A DNA stretch of 62,599 nt, counting the filler, from Mytilus trossulus (lineage: Eukaryota): assembly GCF_036588685.1 (NCBI RefSeq). It is 2 parts of one record of this genome, joined end to end, with 100 filler letters (N's around TTAATTAATTAA, not from the genome) between each part and the next. Parts side by side here need not be neighbours in the genome. Positions count along the whole stretch, not along the records: positions 31,232 to 62,599 come from NC_086377.1; 1 more part is not named here. The stretch is one strand, 5' to 3'. Made by a program: the position numbers and the translations under genes. The notes under the pieces were generated by a model that had not been told where the DNA came from, searched no databases, and saw only the letters and a list, made by a program, of their open reading frames with translations. Shown here in pieces: positions 31,571-46,822 of the stretch; position 1 is the first letter of the stretch, and the number at the start of each line of letters is the position of its first letter.

Positions 31571-32514
31571 GTTTTTTGCCTTCTTCTTATAAAAACCAAT
31601 ACTACTAAGCAGAACGTTTCACTATGGTATTTTGATAAACAATGAGTATTTGTCGGAATCATGTCGATACTTGGTTTTTTTTCAAAGAGATTTTCCATAT
31701 GTATGGCGAATAGAAAAACTAAGAAAATTCTGATGATGTTATACACTTACGATTAGAATATAGACACAACAAAACGATAGGCATTAGATAGATCTTGGTT
31801 TAGTCTGAAATTGTCTCGACCAAGGCTAGACCAGTGTCGACCAGTCTCGACCTATCTCGACTAGTCTTGACCTTAAATTGTTTTTGTCTTGACCGGTCTG
31901 AAGCAGCCCATCTCATTAAATTAAATATAGATGTTATAAAATTCTAGGTTATTTGGTTGTTTAATTCATTGCTGTTATATAAAAGAATTAAATCAATACA
32001 TAAAAAAAATGATTAAATTTAGATAGTCATCTTTTGATTATTACTATAACTTTTTCAAGTCAACTTGGATTTTCATAAAACTCTACAGCTATCTTAATTA
32101 TTCTTTGATCTTACAGAATACGAGGTTGTTTGGGGCTATTGGTACTTTACGGAACGGAACGGAACGGAACGGAACGGAACGGAACAGAATTTCATTTAAG
32201 GTATCCAAAGGGGGCATTTATCAAAATTTCGAAAAATCTTTAAAACAAAACAAACTTTAAAATTTCTGTGTTTTACGGTTTTCCATATACAAAGAACACA
32301 AATGTACTATAATCTCATCTTCACAGGTGAAATGTGCAATAATGTATAACATCGGGAACTATTCTGTAAATAAATATGTCGGATTGTCCTGATAAATTAT
32401 CATGAAATTAACGCATTTGCAAGTCATGCATTATGATATCTAGACTGACCTCACGTCGTCCTTTCCGACGATGATTAGACACATTGGTTCTGATTTTAAC
32501 TTTTTAAATTTATT

Positions 32515-35500
32515 ATTCCGTTCCGCAAAGTACCAATTGCTCTGAGGAATTGGTATTTAACGGAATCGAACGGAACCAGACATTTATAATGAAATAAAAG
32601 TAGTATGATAAAAAAAAAATGTGTCTGACACCCCTTTTTGCAGAAGAAATAAGTGTTTTAGATAGCATTCCCGACCAGATAAATAATTTATTTACCAATG
32701 GAAGGAGTAAGATTTTTTGTTTTTGTCTAAGCTGCCTTTGTTTTAAATTCTTAATAATTAAGAATTTAAAACAAAGGCAGCTTAGACAAAAACAAAAAAT
32801 CTTACTCCTTCCATTGGTAATTATATTTTTTAAAAGAGGCCTTCCACCTCTCGTGCCGACGAGAATTAGAAACAGTAATCAAGTTGAATCTGATTTAAAC
32901 TTTTTAATTTATTATTCCGTTCCGTTCCGTTCCGCAAAGTACCAATTGCTCTGAGGAATTGGTATTTAACGGAATCGAACGGAACCAGACATTTATAATG
33001 TAATAAAAGCAGTATGATAAAAAAAATGTGTCTGACACCCCTTTTTGCAGAAGAAATAAGTGTTTTAGATAGCATTCCCGACCAGATAAATAATTAAGAA
33101 TTTAAAACAAAGGCAGCTTGGACAAAAACAAAAAATCTTACTCCTTTCATTGGTAATTATATTTTTTAAAAGGCCTTCCACCTCTCGTGCCGACGAGAAT
33201 TAGAAACAGTAATCAAGTTGAATCTGATTTAAACTTTTTAATTTATTATTCCGTTCCGTTCCGTTCCGCAAAGTACCAATTGCTCTGAGGAATTGGTATT
33301 TAACGGAATCGAACGGAACCAGACATTTATAATGTAATAAAAGCAGTATGATAAAAAAAAATGTGTCTGACACCCCTTTTTGCAGAAGAAATAAGTGTTT
33401 TAGATAGCATTCCCGACCAGATATATAATTAAGAATTTAAAATAAAGGCAGCTTAGACAAAAAGTCTTACTCCTTCCATTGGTAATTATATTTTTTAAAA
33501 GAGGCCTTCCACCTCTCGTGCCGACGAGGATTAGAAACAGTAATCAAGTTGAATCTGATTTAAACTTTTTAATTTATTATTCCGTTCCGTTCCGTTCCGC
33601 AAAGTACCAATTGCTCTGAGGAATTGGTATTTAACGGAATCGAACGGAAACAGACATCTATAATGTAATAAAAGCAGTAGGATAAAAAAAATGGGTCTGA
33701 CACCCCTTTTTGCAGAAGAAATAAGTGTTTTAGATAGCATTCCCGACCAGATAAATAATTAAGAATTTAACACAAAGGCCGGATAGACAAAAAGTCTTAC
33801 TTCTTCCATTGGTAATTATATTTTTTAAAAGAGGCCTTCCACCTTTCGTTCCGACGAGGATTAGAAACAGTGATCAAGTTGAATCTGATTTAAACTTTTT
33901 AATTTATTATTCCGTTCCGTTCCGTTCCGTAAAGTACCAATTGCTCTGAGGAATTGGTATTTAACGGAATCGAACGGAACCAGACATTTATAATGTAATA
34001 AAAGCAGTATGATAAAAAAATGTGTCTGACACCCCTTTTTGCAGAAGAAATAAGTGTTTTAGATAGCATTCCCGACCAGATATATAATTAAGAATTTAAA
34101 ATAAAGGCAGCTTAGACAAAAAGTCTTAATCCTTCCATTGGTAATTATATTTTTTAAAAGAGGCCTTCCACCTCTCGTTCCGACGAGGATTAGAAACAGT
34201 GATCAAGTTGAATCTGATTTAAACTTTTTAATTTATTATTCCGTTCCGTTCCGTTCCGCAAAGTACCAATTGCTCTGAGGAATTGGTATTTAACGGAATC
34301 GAACGGAACCAGACATTTATAATGTAATAAAAGCAGTTTAATAAAAACATGTGTCTGACACCCCTTTTTGCAGAAGAAATAAGTGTTTTAGATAGCATTC
34401 CCGACCAGATAAATAATTAAGAATTTAAAACAAAGGCAGCTTAGACAAAAACAAAAAATCTTACTCCTTTCATTGGTAATTATATTTTTTAAAAGAGGCC
34501 TTCCACCTCTCGTGCCGACGAGAATTAGAAACAGACTGTCAGTAATCAAGTTGAATCTGATTTAAACTTTTTAATTTATTATTCCGTTCCGTTCCGTTCC
34601 GCAAAGTACCAATTGCTCTGAGGAATTGGTATTTAACGGAATCGAACGGAACCAGACATTTATAATGTAATAAAAGCAGTATGATAAAAAAAAATGTGTC
34701 TGACACCCCTTTTTGCAGAAGAAATAAGTGTTTTAGATAGCATTCCCGACCAGATAAATAATTAAGAATTTAAAATAAAGGCAGCTTAGACAAAAACAAA
34801 AAATCTTACTCCTTCCATTGGTAATTATATTTTTTAAAAGAGGCCTTCCACCTCTCGTGCCGACGAGGATTAGAAACAGTAATCAAGTTGAATCTGATTT
34901 AAACTTTTTAATTTATTATTCCGTTCCGTTCCGTTCCGTAAAGTACCAATTGCTCTCAGGAATTGGTATTTAACGGAATCGAACGGAACCAGACATTTAT
35001 AATGTAATAAAAGCAGTATGATAAAAAAATGTGTCTGACACCCCTTTTTGCAGAAGAAATAAGTGTTTTAGATAGCATTCCCGACCAGATATATAATTAA
35101 GAATTTAAAATAAAGGCAGCTTAGACAAAAAGTCTTACTCCTTCCATTGGTAATTATATTTTTTAAAAGAGGCCTTCCACCTCTCGTGCCGACGAGGATT
35201 AGAAACAGTAATGAAGTTGAATCTGATTTAAACTTTTTAATTTATTATTCCGTTCCGTTCCGTTCCGTTCCGCAAAGTACCAATTGCTCTGAGGAATTGG
35301 TATTTAACGGAATCGAACGGAAACAGACATCTATAATGTAATAAAAGCAGTAGGATAAAAAAAAATGGGTCTGACACCCCTTTTTGCAGAAGAAATAAGT
35401 GTTTTAGATAGCATTCCCGACCAGATAAATAATTAAGAATTTAAAACAAAGGCAGCTTAGACAAAAAGTCTTACTCCTTCCATTGGTAATTATATTTTTT

Positions 35501-35760
35501 AAAGAGGCCTTCCACCTCTCGTTCCGACGAGGATTAGAAACAGTAATCAAGTTGGATCTGATTTAAACTTTTTAATTTATTTTTCCGTTCCGTTCCGTTC
35601 CGCAAAGTACCAATTGCTCTGAGGAATTGGTATTTAACGGAATCGAACGGAAACCGACATCTATAATGTAATAAAAGCAGTATGATAAAAACAAGTCAGA
35701 CCCTTCTTTTTTGAATGAGTGGTAAGTGTTTTAGATAGCATTTCGACTTGATCAATATTT
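32515..35760 (+). repeat. Left-arm tandem array of ~330-bp units (10 junction motifs)
   Basis: GTACCAATTGCTCTGAGG recurs near 32530, 32939, 33273, 33604, 33934, 34263, 34606, 34943, 35277 and 35607. Confidence 0.92.
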
Positions 35761-35762
35761 AA

Positions 35763-36952
35763 ATAAACAGCTGCGCCATGAGCGCATGATACGCCCGTCG
35801 TCTTGTGAAAAAAACAGAAATCTTTTTTGAATAACACAGGGTTGTACAGGATGTCATGCTTAGTATATCCTGACTCCTTCCTTATTCCCGCTCAATAGGA
35901 AGATTCATCATTGTACAAGATGTATTTGGAAACCCGACGCAACATTAGCCTGTTAAGTTTTAAGCAATAGAGATACAGCGCAACATGTGAAAAAAACCTC
36001 TTTTTTTTACAAAAAACTCAATAACTCGAAAATATAAAAATGAATCATCACCAAAAAGTATACAGATCCTTAGATTAATATAAAGAAGTGTGTAAAGTTT
36101 TAAGCAATAATCATAAATCGTTTTTGAGATATGGTGCGACATGTAAACCCCCCTTTTTTTTTTTACAAAATACTCAATAACTCAAAAATGAAATTTTGAA
36201 TCATCACCAAAACGTATACAGATTTTAAGATTAATATAACAAAGACATGTGTAAAGTTTTAAGCAATAATCATAAATCGTTTTTGAGATATGGTGCGACA
36301 TGTAAACCCCCCCTTTTTTTTTTTACAAAATACTCAATAACTCAAAAATGAAATTTTGAATCATCACCAAAACGTATACAGATCTTAAAATTAATATAAC
36401 AAAGACATGTGTAAAGTTTTAAGTAATAATCATAAATCGTTTTTGAGATATGGTGCGACATGTGAAAAAAAACACACCCCTGTTTTAGTTACAAAGTGCC
36501 GTAACTCAAAAAGTTGTAATCTTATTTTCACAAAAAAAACCTCCCCCTTTTTTACAAAATACTCAATAACTCAAAAATTAAATTTTGAATCATCACCAAA
36601 AAGTATACAGATATTAAGATTAATATAACTAAGAAGTATTTAAAGTTTAAAGCCATAATCAAGAATCGTTTTTGAGATACGGTGCGACATGTGAAAAAAA
36701 CACACCCCTGTTTTAGTTACAAAGTACCGTAACTCAAAAAGTTGTAATCTTATTTTCACAAAAGAGTATACAGATCATTTGACCATCATAAGAAACAACT
36801 ATGTTAAGTTTCATGAAATTTGGATAAGTCGTTCTCAAGTTACGGTGCGACATGTTTACACCGGACAGACGGACAGACGGGCGGACGGACGGACGGACAC
36901 TGGACATTTGTATACCATAATACGTCCCGTCAAAATTGACGGACTTTTAAAA
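35763..36952 (-). mobile_element. Helentron-associated non-autonomous element (HINE) nested in the Foldback arm
   Basis: TGCGC-CATGA-GCGCA hairpin plus ATACGCCCGTC at one end; ATACGTCCCGTCAAAATTGACGGAC palindrome at the other; GGAC microsatellite; internal ~120-bp tandem repeats; the host 330-bp unit resumes at ~36953. Confidence 0.8.
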
Positions 36953-37097
36953 AATAACACAAAGACAGGTTAGACAAAAGGTCTTTCTACTTCCATTGGT
37001 AATTATAAATTAAAAAAGGGGCCTTCCGAAGATGATTAGAAACAGTGATCAAAACTTGACAGACAAAAGATTGACGTGCGAGTTTAAGACAATGTAA

Positions 37098-37269
37098 TGT
37101 GATGCCTGAAACACTTCTCAAGCAACGTGGGTCCTATTTGGCACCACAAATAGCAGAGATCTACAAAAAGCTTGGCTGTGACAAAGAGACGTCTGCAGTA
37201 CTCAAACTTTATTTATAGAACGAACAACATAAAAACAAGTACACAATCCCGAACCTTATAACCGTTACA
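37098..37269 (-). repeat. 3' LTR
   Basis: Direct repeat of 41026-41197 with 7 substitutions by manual count; preceded on - strand by PPT AAAGAAAAAGGGGGATAG (37270-37287). Confidence 0.93.
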
Positions 37270-37343
37270 CTATCCCCCCTTTTCTTTATAAACAGACAGT
37301 TCTCAATAAGAATATCTCTTATTTTTTTGCACAAATGTTTTTG

Positions 37344-38500
37344 TCAATCTTTGAAACGTAAGGGTTGGTTTATTTTGCGTCCATATCGACTGATTTTAGG
37401 TGGGTGCTTTTCTTTTGTCATCTGATGATTCCCAGGTAAGCCTGGAGCCTGTGTCCTCGACTCACTGGAATCTGAACTGTCATCCATCTTGGGTGAAATC
37501 TTTGGATTTAAGGCATCATTGAGAGACCCTATCTTCTTGGTTACGTTTGCATGGGTCTTGCTACCACTTGAGACTGGACTCAGTGTCTCCGAATCACGTG
37601 ATATAATCTCCTTCTGTTCTGATTCATCATCTTGTTTGGTTGAATTCTTGCCCGAATCTAAACTTTGTATCGTCTGTTCTAATGAACATATGATATAGTC
37701 TTCAAATAGTGAATTCTCTTTCTTTGAACTATCAGATTTATCGTCGTTAGCCGCATCATAAGCATCTGAAATTTCGACAACAAATTCTTGCGATAGCTTA
37801 ATATTCTTGTTCTCAAACCAACCTGAGTCTGGAGCCTGTGTCCTCGGCTCATGTGGCACATTTGAACCAATCGCACTTACCTCGTCCATGTCTGAAACAT
37901 TATCTTTTTCAAGATTATCCTGTAGGCGAGTTTCCACTAAAACCGACCCAGTGTTGTTATTGTCTTGTAAGGAAGCTGGGTCTAAAACATCAACAATACT
38001 TTCTTTTAGACTTTCAACTCCTCCATATACATCTGTCTCGTCCATGGGCTTTAAAGTATCTAAAGTGGGTTCCATTCCAGCCGTCACTCTTGATATTTGG
38101 CAATCATTTTCTGTTCGATACCGTCCTGGTATCAGCTCATTATTTATCAGCAGATCACCTTATTTGGCCATTATGATACCATCTACTTCTTTCAGTAAGT
38201 CTATTCCAATCAAAATATCATCTCTTATGGGGGCAATGCATACTCTCCAAATTATCTCCTTTTTACCCAGTTGAAGCTTTGCAACAATATTCATGTCAGC
38301 CTCCATTTCTTTCCCATTTTCTGCATTCAATAAGCAAGCTTTTATACCGGTAGTACCGCTCAAACCAATACAATTTGCAAAGGATCTTGAAAGTACCGTT
38401 ACATCTGCTCCTGTATCAACAATAGCATCGACCTTATTGCCATTGACTTGAATTGGAATGAGTAAATCTTGTCCTCTGCCAATTTGATAATATATCTCCT
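37344..38500 (-). pseudogene. Retroviral-type aspartic protease followed by an acidic low-complexity tail; in-frame stop at 38160-38162
   Basis: Manual translation LLIPIQVNGNKVDAIVDTGADVTVLS ... DDILIGIDLL; same frame continues through TAA into the 247-aa ORF ending SRYGRKINQPLRFKD. Confidence 0.85.
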
Positions 38501-40343
38501 TTCACAATCAGCACCAGTATCTTGTCTTCTCATAGGGCTGGGGGATCGTGATCTTTTTGGACAATCACGTTTGAAATGGCTTTTATCGCCACAAAAATAA
38601 CATCCCGTTGACTGTGCTGTCAAGGTAGCTGGTTTTGAATCATGCAGCATGGCCCTTTCTAAAAGACCTCTTAGTGCTTTGATTTCATTCTGTAATGTTT
38701 GATTATCTGGTTTCCGAAATGAATTTACCAACTGCCTAACGCTGTCCATCCCTTCATATTGGTCAGTACTCTTTTCCTCTTCATCTTTCCACGTAACGCG
38801 TCTGGTCCTTTGTTTTGTATTATAATCAACATCCCTGCCCAACGTAGCATGATAATTGTGTTGTAGTTGTACAACAATATCTAGTGCTGAAGATACAGTC
38901 TAAGGTTGGTGGTTTAAAGCTTCATATGCTATTTTGGCGTTCTTGTGGCCCTTCAAAAAGTGTTCCGCTGCAAGTTCCTCTTGTAACTCGATACTACTTG
39001 TTGGGTATGCTCTTGAGACTAATCGTCTTACTTCTTCAGCAAACTCTTCATTCTTTTCATTGTGTTGTCTTAAATCAGATAGTTTTTTTCGTGCAGTGGA
39101 TGGGGGCTCTTTTCGGTTGAACCTGTTTTCCTTGTGACGCGAATTGGATTCAAAAGTATCTCTTTCCTGTCGAGGAATTGCGGTCATAAATTTACTCGCC
39201 TGTCCTCGCAGGCATTCAATGTACCTATCTAACTTTTCCTCCTCTGTCCATTCGTTTCTCCTAGCTTCCCTGTTGAATGGGATAATAAACCCCTCATAAT
39301 CATCCTTCCCGTCGAATGTTGGAAGTTTTTGGTGCGGAACGTCACTATTTGGTACTTTTTGTCTTGTCTGCTGTGTATTGTTACTACTGTGCATAGCTTC
39401 AATATCACTAGAAAACGAAGGTTGTATGTTTCTTATCAAATCTTGTCTATTATTAGTGTTCATAGACCTCGACCTAGACTCCCATCTTTCTATAGTGCTT
39501 AACAACGGTTTAAAAGGGGGGAGTGTTGTGGTATCCCTTGGTGTTGATGACAATGGTGTGTGTGAATTAGCATTTAGTCTGGGACTGTTCCCGCGACCAA
39601 ACTGCAAACTCCCGTTCTGTCTGTCATCATCTAAATTCTGTGTTGTTGTATCCCTTTGTGTTGATGACAATGGTGTGTGTGAATTTGCATTTGGTCTGGG
39701 ACTGTTCCCGCGACCAAACTGCAAACTTCCGGTCTGTATGTCATCATCTGTATTCTGGGACGATGGCCTGGGACTGTTCCCTAGACCGAACTGCAAATAT
39801 CCTATTGGTTGATTATCTAAACTAAATGAAGGTGGTCTGGGACTGTTCCCACGACCGAACTGTAAAACCGATTTCGGCTTGCTATCTTGACCGAACAGAG
39901 ATTGTCTGTGACTGTTCTCTTGGTCAACCTGAAAACTGTCAACTGGTTTGTTTTCACCTAACTTAGGGTCTAGGTGTTCATTATTTCCATCATATAATCC
40001 ATACTTTGGACAAATAGAAGACCCAGAAAAATCGTCAACTGTGTAACCGGAAGTATTAGTTCCTGTGCTCTTAATGTCGGATTTCGATGTCTCCCGGTTC
40101 TGCAAAAACGTATTGTTCATTTCTTCTATACTTCTACTTTGTTGGTAGAGTAGCTGCATTGTATTGGCAGAAACCTCATCCTGTTTTCTAAACATATGTC
40201 ATGGTGTCAGCCAAGGTTCCCATGTCGTTCCCCATTCTTTCTAACACGTTAAGCATTTTTATGCCAAACTGATCACCATTTGGCGGGGAATCTTCGCTGA
40301 CTTTTCGATCAGAACCCGTCTCTACTACTGTATCGTCATTCAT
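38500..40343 (-). pseudogene. gag: gag (capsid-like region and CCHC zinc knuckle), disrupted
   Basis: KLPTFDGKDDYEGF...W...LRGQA and LRQ..E..EEFA motifs; CYFCGDKSHFKRDC; in-frame TAG at 38900-38902 joins two ORFs; probable ATG at 40343 with a frameshift near 40195. Confidence 0.85.
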
Positions 40344-41010
40344 GTTTATTATTAAATTGCAATTTATAAAAGATTGTAATTTTCAATCCTGTGGATCGAC
40401 GTGTACTGAAAATGATTCCCTATCTAACCAATACTCTTGGCATATGTCAAGTGGTAATCTTCTAAACCACTTTTGTGCCCATATTCTTTTAGGATGAAGC
40501 CCGTCTCTTAGCAGGTGAAAATTAATATTTTGTCTGTTGTGTGATGACGAGTGGAATAGACCTGAGATAGTTGTGTAGAACAGTTTCACTCATAAGTCCT
40601 TTATTTTCTAAATTCGATCTGTAATACTTAAAAAACACGTATTACATGAAACAGTCTAAAAATATGCAAATTATTATGATACAAAATGCAAATCTTGACT
40701 AAAATAAAATAAAAAATAAAAAATAAAAATGTTTTTGTATGTCCAGTAATTTGGTGACGAGGTCGGAGCCACCGGAATTATTTTTTTTCAAATACAAATT
40801 TTCGTCAGCTAAATTTTTTGTAAAATTAAAACAATTTTCAGTATTTAAAGTATAAAAATCATACGATCTCACCGGAATAATTATGTTTGGGTTGTGATTG
40901 ACGGGGATCCGCTTCTGGATCGCCCAATCGTCGACTCACGTGGTTTTCCAAACTGGCAACTTTCCGATGAATTTTCAAACTTCTCAGTCGAATAAATTCA
41001 CAATAGTCGA

Positions 41011-41024
41011 CACTTCTGACACCA
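41011..41024 (-). promoter_or_regulatory. Primer binding site complementary to the tRNA-Leu 3' end
   Basis: TGGTGTCAGAAGTG, 1 nt inside the 5' LTR boundary. Confidence 0.85.
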
Positions 41025-41025
41025 G

Positions 41026-41197
41026 TGTGATCCCTGAAATATTTCTCAAGCAACGTGGGTCCTATTTGGCACCACAAATAGCAGAGATCTACAAAAAGCT
41101 TGGCTGTGACAAAAAGACGTCTGCAGTACTCAAACTTTATTTAAAGAACGAACAACATAAAAACAAGTACACAATCCCGAACCCAATAACCGTTACA
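41026..41197 (-). repeat. 5' LTR
   Basis: TGTAACGG...TCACA on - strand; matches 37098-37269. Confidence 0.93.
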
Positions 41198-41619
41198 GTA
41201 ATTAAAAAATTGACACTGTCATAGTTTAAGTACACTTGTATTTCTACATCAAAAGCTTATGTCATTCGCACTGTATATTGTCAAAGTTGCGGACTTCTAA
41301 TTTAATAAAAGGTTAATTTTGATATTTTCATTTGTAACCACTGTAATGACGCCGGGTATAATTGACGAGAGCTTTGTTTTTATTCAAGACATTTTTTTTC
41401 ATTTTTTTTTTTAACTTAAATACACATGCATGATATTCATTAGCACAATTTAAAACTTACATTCAAATGAATTCCAAGAGGATCAACATTACTTTAGACA
41501 TACAAATGTAGCAACTCATTCCGAACTGTAATAATTAACGACAACATTTTTTTGCCCATTTCATCATTTTTTTTCCCGAAAATTTTAAAATATAATAAGG
41601 AATGGATGGATTTTGGGTA

Positions 41620-43490
41620 AACCTGCATTTGTGTTAAATTATTTATTAATGATCAGGTCGAGAATGCTATATAAAACAATTACCACTCATTCAAAAAAAG
41701 AAGTGTCAGCCTTTTTTTATCATACTGATTTTATTACATTTGTAGATGTCTGTTTCCGTTCGATTCCGTTAAATACCAATTCCTCAGAGCAATTGGTACT
41801 TTGCGGAACGGAACGGAACGGAATAATAAATTAAAAAGTTTAAAATCAGATTCAACTTGATCACTGTTTCTAATCATCGTCGGAACGAAAGGTGGAAGGC
41901 CTCTTTTAAAAAATATAATTACCAATGGAAGAAGTAAGACTTTTTGTCTATCCGGCCTTTGTGTTAAATTCTTAATTATTTATCTGGTCGGGAATGCTAT
42001 CTAAAACACTTATTTCTTCTGCAAAAAGGGGTGTCAGACACATTTTTTTTTATCATACTACTTTTATTACATTATAAATGTCTGGTTCCGTTCGATTCCG
42101 TTAAATACCAATTCCTCAGAGCAATTGGTACTTTGCGGAACGGAACGGAACGGAATAATAAATTAAAAAGTTTAAATCAGAAACAACTTGATCACTGTTT
42201 CTAATCCTCGTCGGAACGAAAGGTGGAAGGCCTCTTTTAAAAAATATAATTACCAATGGAAGAAGTAAGACTTTTTGTCTATCCGGCCTTTGTGTTAAAT
42301 TCTTAATTATTTATCTGGTCGGGAATGCTATCTAAAACACTTATTTCTTCTGCAAAAAGGGGTGTCAGACACATGTTTTTATCATACTGCTTTTATTACA
42401 TTATAAATGTCTGGTTCCGTTCGATTCCGTTAAATACCAATTCCTCAGAGCAATTGGTACTTTGCGGAACGGAACGGAACGGAATAATAAATTAAAAAGT
42501 TTAAATCAGATTCAACTTGATTACTGTTTCTAATCCTCGTCGGCACGAAAGGTGGAAGGCCTCTTTTAAAAAATATAATTACCAATGGAAGAAGTAAGAC
42601 TTTTTGTCTATCCGGCCTTTGTGTTAAATTCTTAATTATTTATCTGGTCGGGAATGCTATCTAAAACACTTATTTTTTCTGCAAAAAGGGGTGTCAGACA
42701 CATTTTTTTTATCATACTGCTTTTATTACATTATAAATGTCTGGTTCCGTTCGATTCCGTTAAATACCAATTCCTCAGAGCAATTGGTACTTTGCGGAAC
42801 GGAACGGAACGGAATAATAAATTAAAAAGTTTAAATCAGATTCAACTTGATTACTGTTTCTAATTCTCGTCGGCATGAGAGGTGGAAGGCCTCTTTTAAA
42901 AAATATAATTACCAATGGAAGGAGTAAGATTTTTTGTTTTTGTCTAAGCTGCCTTTGTTTTAAATTCTTAATTATTTATCTGGTCGGAAATGCTATCTAA
43001 AACACTTATTTCTTCTGCAAAAAGAGGTGTCAGACACATTTTTTTTTTATCATACTACTTTTATTTCATTATAAATGTCTGGTTCCGTTCGATTCCGTTA
43101 AATACCAATTCCTCAGAGCAATTGGTACTTTGCGGAACGGAACGGAACGGAATAATAAATTAAAAAGTTTAAATCAGATTCAACTTGATTACTGTTTCTA
43201 ATACTCGTCGGCACGAGAGGTGGAAGGCCTCTTTTAAAAAATATAATTACCAATGGAAGGAGTAAGACTTTTTGTCTAAGCTGCCTTTGTTTTAAATTCT
43301 TAATTATTTATCTGGTCGGGAATGCTGTCTAAAACACTTATTTCTCGTGCAAAAAGGGGTGTCAGACACATTTTTTTTTTTATATCATACTGCTTTTATT
43401 ACATTATAAATGTCTGGTTCCGTTCGATTCCGTTAAATACCAATTCCTCAGAGCAATTGGTACTTTGCGGAACGGAACGGAACGGAATAA
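41620..43490 (-). repeat. Right-arm tandem array of the same ~330-bp unit, inverted (6 junction motifs)
   Basis: CCTCAGAGCAATTGGTAC near 41782, 42114, 42443, 42773, 43111 and 43446. Confidence 0.92.
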
Positions 43491-43860
43491 TAAATTTAAA
43501 AAGTTAAAATCAGAACCAATGTTTCTAATCATCGTCGGAAAGGACGACGTGAGGTCAGTCTAGATATCATAATGCATGACTTGCAAATGCGTTAATTTCA
43601 TGATAATTTATCAGGACAATCCGACATATTCATTTACAGAATAGTTCCCGATGTTATACATTATTGCACATTTCAACTGTGAAGATGAGATTAAGTATAC
43701 ATTTGTGTTATTTGTATATGGAAAACCGTAAAACACAGAAATTTTAAAGTTTGTTTTGTTTTAAAGATATTTCGAAATTTTGATAAATGCCCCCTTTGGA
43801 TACCTTAAATGAAATTCTGTTCCGTTCCGTTCCGTTCCGTTCCGTAAAGTACCAATAGCC

Positions 43861-44385
43861 GTTGTTTGGTAGTTTGATTTATTGCTTTCAAATTTGAGAA
43901 TTTAATTAATAGATAAAAAAAAAGCTAGAATTTTCAGTCGGACTGAATTCAGACAGTTAACTTTAAATTTGTTTATTATTTTTTCAAATTATTTTCGATT
44001 TTCATAAAACTGTACAGCTATCTCAGTTATATATTGAATGTCAGGTTGTTTGGTACTTTAGTGTATTGCTGTCAAATCTAATTATTTGATTGATAGGTAA
44101 TTAAATAAGCTAGAATTTTTAAGTTCTGACAGAATTCTGATAGTCACCTTTAAAAAAAATCGTTTTCAAATTAACTTGGATTTTCATAAAACTATACAGC
44201 TAACTCAGCTGTATATATATATTAATGTTACTGAATCCCAGGTTCTTATGTTGTTAGTCATATTGCTGACAAATTTAAGGATTTATTTAATCAAGGTAAA
44301 AAAGCTAGAATAATTATTTCGGACTAAATTCAGATAGTCATCTTTAGATTCGTTTATAACTGTTTCAAAGCAACTTGGATTTCAT
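43861..44385. repeat. Old degenerate ~165-bp tandem repeat (also ~31920-32133), split by the Foldback insertion
   Basis: GATTTTCATAAAACT-TACAGCTA and AAGCTAGAAT recur; the unit continues across the insertion. Confidence 0.7.
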
Positions 44386-45108: not shown

Positions 45109-46822
45109 TTATTTAAAACATTCAAATATAAACATAGACCTGACACCTGCAGAAAGTTTTTGTCGAAACTGCTGACCCATCACTAGATATACTATAAAGT
45201 TCATTGCAAAGCCTATCGATAGACTAAGATGTCTGTATGGTATCAGCTTTCCGTGTAATGTCTCGTTTGAAGAAAGGAAATACAATATACAAACTGCACT
45301 GTTTAGTATTTCCGACAAAATGAAAACAATGCATATGAAAGCAATAGTCAATGCAGATATTCGATTTCTACGTGTTACAGTTGGATGATCTATCCAAGGT
45401 AAGTTTTTTCTTATGATAGTTAATTTACATATGATGTACATTGTACAGATTAAAACTAAGGACACACATAAAAGTATCAAGTTGGTAACGACTAGAATTG
45501 AATATCTGTATGTGCTTTTGAGTTGTTTTTTAATTCTAAATCTAGACAACAATGACCGTCAATCTCTCTCATCCAGTGAAGCGGCAACATAATTAAAAGT
45601 ATGGTCAAGGCTGTAGCTAGCATGACTGACAAAATTATGCATATTAGGATGACCCTATTGGTTAGGTATTCCCTCCTCCATAATGGAAACATCAGAACTG
45701 CTGTTTTCTGTAGACAAGAGATTATTGTGATTAAAATGGACAATAAATGAAAACCATCAGAAATAATATTGACAATGCTATACCAAACACAGAACGGATA
45801 ATCCAATAAAAGACGTATTAGTTTGCCATTTGTAAAACCCATTTGATGATAGTAAAATGAATAAGATATAAATTCTGAACCACACCAAATTAATGCTGAT
45901 AAAGTATCTGATATTGCCAAAGCAGAAAGGAGAATGACCACTGGTGATCTATTTTCCTTTCGTAGAAATATCGATAGTACAAAAATATTAAAAATAGTTA
46001 CAACTACGACTAATACCATTTCTGCATAGGACATTGGGGATTCTAGGATCGATATACTTATAATTTTATATGAGTCCCCTATACATTGGTAATAAATTTT
46101 AAGACAGTCGAATTCTGATTTAAATTCCATGATATTGCCTATACTTAGGAGATATTCTGTTTCATTTTTCTGGTAACCTTGTAATTGAACATACTGATAA
46201 AATGGTTTTATACACGAATCGTCTGCTAACAGAATTAGCTGATGCCGATGGTAACCTTGACTCATTCCCGATAACATTCTTCCTTCAAATAAAACAGGGT
46301 TGTCAATGTGATTATCATGTAGAGATATGATAAATACTTGTTGATTTGTAAAAGACAAATGCTCCCAGCAAGATGTCATGTTCAGAAGGAAAAATATCAT
46401 ATCATCTTGATTTAGACGATATTTTTTCAGGCATAAAAAATTTTGGAACTTCATCGTACACTGCTCAATTTCATCTGTAAAAAAAATATCCAAACCTTTG
46501 AAATATGGAACTTCAAAATCGTCTGTATAAGTGATATTGTATGTTACTAACGAGTCACAAAACAGTTTCCGGAAAGTCACGTCTGTACAGTATTCGAGTT
46601 CCTCCTTTAACTGTGAGACATGAAAGTAGACATCCCCAACAATCTTATTCAGATCTGTTGTTTAGGAACAATTATAGCCTAGTTCTACAACTAAAAGCGT
46701 TGAATCTTGAAATCTAGCCAGGAATGACTGACCTTTATCCAAAGATACCATCTTTCCTAAAACATGAGGGCATACAAGTTGGTATAAGTCGGTAGACTCA
46801 CACATTGTCCTACTTTTAGGAT
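45109..46822 (-). pseudogene. Class A (rhodopsin-like, peptide-receptor/chemoreceptor-like) GPCR, long terminal exon, disrupted
   Basis: TM1 ..IFNIFVL, TM2 LSALAISD, TM3 ending CLQK..V..P, TM7 AMNFIVY..MGQQFRQKL; frameshift probably at the A6 run 45526-45531; in-frame TAA at 46662-46664; candidate acceptor TTTCAG at 46823. Confidence 0.8.

Follow-up and report, generated by a model that had tools for sequence, protein, structure and literature searches.

The window, by which we mean the whole stretch of 62,599 nucleotides of Mytilus trossulus DNA that was analysed (NCBI RefSeq assembly GCF_036588685.1; positions 31,232 to 62,599 come from NC_086377.1), carries a foldback transposon of 11.7 kb at positions 32134-43860. 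Its true tips are identical over 30 bp, and the 9-bp target-site duplication (TSD) GTTGTTTGG flanks it on both sides. Each arm begins with an outer domain of 408-409 bp and continues in repeats of ~330 bp (Table 1), which gives the long inverted arms with internal tandem repeats that are typical of foldback elements; no transposase frame was found in 10 copies, and the element is a non-autonomous foldback-type TIR transposon. Two further elements are nested within it: one at 35762-36940, which from its structure we take to be a Helitron-like non-autonomous element, and an LTR retroelement that retains only broken gag and aspartyl-protease frames. The insertion site is itself an old repeat of ~190 bp (window 31948-32133 and 43861-44302), and the target motif is repeated in the flanks. 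Elsewhere in the window, a frame of 389 codons at 45492-46661 (minus strand) has hydrophobic stretches resembling a fragment of a seven-helix receptor, with no Pfam match at 1e-3.

Table 1. Features of the foldback transposon and its borders, in window coordinates.
Feature	Position	Strand	Remark
Left 9-bp TSD copy	32125..32133	+	Identical to 43861-43869
True left terminus (16-bp tip plus GGAAC repeats)	32134..32163	+	153 exact genome copies
Left outer domain, 408 bp	32134..32541	+	Only the last ~105 bp match the monomer
First junction: A (inverted end copy), CTG, B (direct end copy)	32512..32574	.	Quasi-palindrome, recurs each period
Left arm array: 9 monomers of ~330 bp	32545..35618	+	10 junctions including the first
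Fold-back duplication, fresh, 73 bp	32680..32832	.	Inside monomer 1, which becomes 406 bp
Inner-left diverged partial unit	35622..37052	+	Monomer positions 1-258, ~80% alike; split by nested insert
Nested insert	35762..36940	.	160-bp repeats, 4-bp microsatellite, terminal hairpin
Nested LTR retroelement	37098..41197	-	175-bp LTRs (TG...CA), 4-bp duplication GTAA
Inner-right diverged partial unit	41583..41784	-	Monomer positions 1-211
Right arm array: 5 monomers	41788..43448	-	6 junctions
Right outer domain	43452..43860	-	Ends in true right terminus
Right 9-bp TSD copy	43861..43869	+	

The element belongs to a dispersed family. The genome assembly (1.30 Gb, 541 contigs) contains 153 exact tips and 1571 exact junctions, corresponding to roughly 75 element copies, and among 100 listed of the 153 tips most pair at 3-30 kb. 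Twenty-seven loci were read, 21 of them holding complete copies, and all 21 carry distinct TSDs of 9 bp (12 copies) or 8 bp (nine copies), one 9-bp pair having a mismatch. The outer domains of different copies are only 1.0% apart, which indicates that the family spread recently, elements of 10-30 kb included. Ten copies mapped in full have a non-coding core in common, and each of these cores holds, whole or in part, the same two passengers, a repeat-bearing insert and the LTR element, the latter being spread by the DNA transposon; in one further copy (L085) the LTR element is reduced to a solo LTR. Arms vary in length, with 1-40 junctions in those read, and one arm of a complete copy, C1h, has a single junction and no monomer, which may reflect contraction. 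An extra unit of 290 bp, with an unrelated middle and a variant, A-like end, is found in eight of ten right arms and is absent from the window copy (41786-41790 region); it ends in the same junction node as the 408- and 330-bp units. A 231-bp miniature derivative (L089:516-746; G000:C4 near 94.419 Mb) has two true, working tips, a 9-bp TSD and no junction. At another locus (L074:826-1340) a left tip and its flank are tandemly duplicated (379 bp) beside an insertion in the outer domain. A search of the literature listed no paper on this family, which may already be catalogued, and none on arm monomers bearing head-to-head end copies.

The preliminary description had held that every unit of the arms contains a junction of two end copies, and this is borne out: the motif is present in all 10 junctions of the left arm and all 6 of the right, with the spacer CTG in 15 of these 16 and CTC in one. 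Against the 30-bp terminus the A half scores 27-28 matches (23 in the first junction, where the GGAAC run is shorter) and the B half 23. Over the 16 bases outside the GGAAC microsatellite, A matches at 13-14 and B at 11; among 3000 dinucleotide shuffles of the monomer, 0.33% reached 13 on one strand and 24% reached 11, while the A and B scores were attained together in a single shuffle. The likeness to the termini therefore holds without the GGAAC repeats for A and for the A plus B pair, B alone reaching significance only because it is in phase with the GGAAC repeats (fixed-position p 5e-4), and chance or a microsatellite artefact as the source of the junction is rejected by the shuffle test. 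The outer domain is likewise bounded by inverted ends, the true tip and the A half delimiting 32134-32541, and the inner copies have the altered tips attributed to them, A being changed at positions 1 and 4 and B at positions 1, 3 and 4. The two halves thus share their changes at positions 1 and 4 relative to the true tip; at five further sites A agrees with the true tip and B differs, and at one site the reverse is found. The more specific assignment of A to the right terminus and B to a degenerate left terminus stands only in part. For A the likeness is found within the 30-bp motif and is lost beyond it (p 0.38-0.87), and for B the motif is followed by a faint likeness to the true left end over 30-45 bp (p 0.01-0.02, uncorrected, 24 comparisons).

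How such junctions came to fill the arms is best approached through the array edges. In the outer domain, likeness to the monomer is confined to positions 222-326, whereas the inner-left unit corresponds to positions 1-258 and the inner-right unit to positions 1-211; the middles of the outer domain, the monomer and the 290-bp unit are unrelated (12 comparisons, all z < 1.7). The array edges accordingly map to monomer positions ~222 and ~258, which is ~70-105 bp short of a junction, so that the array starts ~105 bp before a junction and ends ~258 bp after one, that is, one period plus a 37-bp overlap. Edges of this kind are what would result if a stretch with one junction in it were amplified in tandem, and the reading that suits the monomer best is that of such a stretch, built around one ancestral junction and then multiplied. 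The single-junction arm of C1h, if it is not a contraction, shows the form that the arm would have had beforehand, and a like argument has been published for Tetris. We would picture the course of events as follows: an old duplication would put a second end ~410 bp inside the arm with a short inverted copy beside it; unequal exchange at a stretch of ~37 bp that outer domain and inner unit have in common would make the monomer; and the number of units would then change through unequal exchange and arm-to-arm repair.

Exchange between the arms, a possibility raised in the preliminary description, is visible in the outer monomers of 3 of 10 elements, which stand in mirror register, with distances of 0-0.009 in register against 0.011-0.037 off register. 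Outer domains are also closer within elements than between them, the window copy excepted, and together these two observations indicate that the arms copy from each other. In two elements (L076 and L070) the left-type inner unit ends both arms, from which it appears that such copying can reach into the core.

The ancestral junction itself may have arisen by fold-back or as an end-to-end joint. The three spacer bases are self-complementary, which makes the junction a palindrome with a 1-nt loop, with a predicted fold of -18.4 kcal/mol, and the spacer measures 3 bp in 257 of 257 junctions from ten elements. The usual centre stands in 365 of the 392 junctions read; in three it is replaced by its exact reverse complement (a single event, amplified), in two the loop base is flipped, and in four a deletion touches the centre. 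These hairpin-type changes, taken with the 73-bp inverted duplication in the first monomer of the window, make a fold-back origin plausible. The tip changes that A and B share are no proof of it, since a hairpin swaps letters between the halves, and the resemblance that B retains to the left end outside the motif is what a real joined end would be expected to show and counts against the fold-back reading. On balance we lean modestly towards fold-back over an end-to-end joint.

There are approximately twenty inner ends for each true end and none was found at an insertion border, which argues that inner ends are unused, or very rarely used, in transposition. In the foldback MULE Muta1 (PMC5499845, PMC5225508), cleavage and joining are reported to be reduced when bases near the tip are mutated, and excision to rise with the number of subterminal repeats; for Galileo, PMC3688188 describes binding of transposase by the TIR repeats. 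These data, together with the lack of free inner ends, make it likely that the inner ends are bound but not cut by the transposase: the tip changes would block cleavage, the subterminal motif would still bind, and a MULE transposase acting in trans would move the whole element. A change at position 4 alone may not block use, since one true tip of C1h carries it. Conservation of the junction provides only a weak signal. Common variants occur at 2 of the 62 sites in the junction and at 47 of the 269 outside it (p 0.003 raw, the variants being linked), and the depletion has a p of 0.09 once alleles of the inner units are removed. Taken as a whole, a history in which a 330-bp segment with one head-to-head pair was tandemly amplified, and the inner ends are bound and not cut, is in our judgement about evenly balanced between being right and wrong.

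The alternative that fares best grants the same origin and denies any function: the palindrome and the GGAAC runs would destabilise the arm, and gene conversion would keep the junction uniform. Several observations suit it. Rare variants are equally frequent in the junction and elsewhere (0.66 against 0.74 per site), the shortage of common variants loses its significance after correction, and the number of units ranges from 1 to 40 per arm; moreover, the array is not needed for movement, because the 231-bp derivative, which has no junction, has true tips and a 9-bp TSD. It accounts poorly for the B half, which is nearly unchanged in both inner units where these are otherwise ~75-80% alike, and for the persistence of an A-like end in the otherwise unrelated 290-bp unit; elements of 10-30 kb, in addition, still spread recently, and extra binding sites would help them, by analogy with what is described of Galileo and Muta1. 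We regard junctions that are mere passengers as a possible explanation, with the odds clearly against it.

The preliminary description favoured another history, in which a free mini-element lay between the end copies, a tandem dimer or a re-inserted circle produced the junction, the tips decayed, and whole units multiplied. It would explain why inverted end copies bound both the outer domain and the monomer, why B faintly resembles the true left end beyond the motif, and why three types of unit (408, 330 and 290 bp) end in the same node, and tandem dimers of DNA transposons, often with loss of ends, are known from the material consulted in PMC5932611. The traces that such units should have left were, however, not recovered. 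No solo 330-bp or 410-bp element with TSDs was found with exact patterns in two registers, patterns which would detect roughly two thirds to four fifths of random flanks and which old, diverged solo elements escape. Four exact-pattern scans in both registers, seeking a foreign neighbour, gave no free inner end among 27 variant matches, to be set beside the 1571 exact junctions, 26 of these matches being point changes in intact junctions and one an internal deletion (L029) that begins exactly at the A tip and is also explained by microhomology. No plus/minus tip pair ~410 bp apart occurs among 100 listed of the 153 tips. A narrow pattern for two true tips joined within 30 bp gave no match in the assembly; a broad pattern for such joints gave 1620 matches, swamped by the usual junctions. 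In contigs of four public runs the outer domain, junction and monomer are the same as in the genome and no loose end at an inner tip was seen, although contigs drop rare forms; the ratios of junction to outer-domain depth in these runs (12.5, ~10, 4.9 and 4.0) are not copy numbers and carry no weight as evidence.

What was recovered also tells against free units. The sole real mini-derivative found uses two true tips; the spacer, of 1-3 bp and self-complementary, falls short of the 8-9 bp expected; and on the 329-bp period the two array edges are no more than ~37 bp apart and lie off the junction, a coincidence that we estimate at ~1 in 9 by chance. With no solo unit, no true tip joint, edges off the junction and a spacer not of TSD length, an origin from tandem mini-elements or circles did not find support, and we consider it unlikely.

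Nor do the repeats appear to be leaving the element. Each exact tip corresponds to ~10 junctions, in line with an average of 12.9 for the ten large elements and lower values for smaller ones, so that a large free satellite would not fit into the count. Together the repeats amount to roughly 0.5 Mb, and the arms account for all of it. The earlier picture of a MITE becoming satellite DNA thus gives way, as element arms account for the number of junctions (1571 for 153 tips, with at least 100 junction places listed), and the array is transposon-borne, not an emancipating satellite, unless the assembly misses arrays.

Less probable again is a genuine end-to-end joint whose tips were disarmed, which was then kept as an uncleavable head-to-head dock for the transposase and, under selection, raised to as many as 40 copies per arm; if true, such a dock would let elements of up to 30 kb, with their passenger retro- and rolling-circle elements, keep jumping. 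Double insertion of a transposon leaves a spacer of target length (PMC5932611), so that a tandem dimer formed in this way is rejected by the 3-bp spacer of 257 of 257 junctions against a TSD of 8-9 bp, and the monomer or outer domain as a free MITE by the 0 free ends in 27 variant matches of the exact-pattern scans.

The identity of the transposase acting in trans can be narrowed from the features of the ends. TSDs within the 8-11 bp of MULEs and long TIRs agree with the definition given in the relevant part of PMC6446971, and the mixture of 8- and 9-bp duplications with long modular arms favours this class, which we hold slightly more probable than all others combined. Merlin, at roughly half that standing, is kept as a candidate for the GG tips and a partial likeness to two Merlin TIRs; 5'-GG tips, 8- or 9-bp TSDs and internal tandem repeats are features of that superfamily in what was consulted of PMC8101967, and two Merlin families of the same genome resemble the element tip in part, while all nine well-defined Merlin copies there have 8-bp TSDs and TIRs under 30 bp. 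Some other class seems improbable. An autonomous partner was not found near MULE or Merlin matches, 150 of 266 candidates having been scored: the element tip was absent near MULE-domain matches (20 loci at +-5 kb and 30 in a narrow search, among 96 listed matches) and near 38 matches to the Merlin domain (IS1595-type transposase) at +-5 kb. The search for a sister family sharing the tip core gave a chance-level result, 5 against 9 in the control.

Transposase-carrying elements of the same genome have inner end copies as a normal feature. MULE-domain elements (L102:1617-2164 and L106:580-1614) have long TIRs of ~200-bp units with terminal motifs. Among MULE-domain elements, one has a second end at +198, 27/30 alike with its first two bases changed, and no TSD was found for it; another has 1-kb arms built of ~190-bp units. 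A Merlin-domain element (L153:3417-7536) with an 8-bp TSD has tip-altered inner TIR copies near one end, five inverted and one direct. The L102 and L106 elements are candidates for the same kind of study with the transposase in hand. A young Merlin family of 1.64 kb (L140:3982-5617) was also encountered, with at least eight copies read, an open transposase frame, and left and right tips unlike each other.

The closest parallels are Tetris, Galileo and Muta1. Tetris of Drosophila virilis, according to the part of PMC4079207 consulted, likewise has long TIRs composed of an outer domain, a variable tandem array and an inner domain, a non-coding middle and TSDs of 8-10 bp, its repeats going back to a 37-bp segment of the flanking (outer) domain, and both families are without a known autonomous partner. 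The same part of that paper does not describe end copies in the Tetris monomer and reports that the 220-bp repeats of Tetris also form long arrays apart from complete elements, whereas the junction counts of the Mytilus family fit the arms alone. Muta1 of Aedes aegypti, a MULE type-2 foldback, shares the mixture of 8- and 9-bp TSDs within one family, a G tip, and a terminal motif followed by subterminal repeats, but its repeats, as given in the consulted parts of PMC5499845 and PMC5225508, are of 12 bp, direct and without the terminal motif, where the Mytilus element has whole 30-bp ends head to head every 330 bp and encodes no transposase. Galileo, of the P superfamily, is described in the consulted part of PMC3688188 with kilobase TIRs and long direct repeats carrying secondary transposase sites, these being short THAP motifs ~70 bp inside rather than copies of the tip. 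In tandem dimers and arrays of P, hobo and Bari1, right and left ends abut and damaged ends persist longer (PMC5932611, in part); there, whole elements are repeated, separated by TSD spacers or with their ends deleted, in contrast to an array that lies inside the arms and for which no free unit was found.

The general design is therefore one already described in fly and mosquito transposons (Tetris, Galileo and Muta1), and what sets this family apart is the head-to-head pair of tip-altered ends in the arm repeat. The family is not a case of a transposon turning into free satellite. Foldback arms are thought to gather transposase, and only short motifs have been tested so far; here each repeat holds complete ends with two to three terminal bases different from the working tip, and the family forms a natural series, with 0 to 40 junctions per arm, ~75 young copies and arm assemblies at long-read scale. 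Which bases distinguish an end that is cut from a site that is bound, and whether the size of the array pays for the length of the element, are questions that can be tested through this family.
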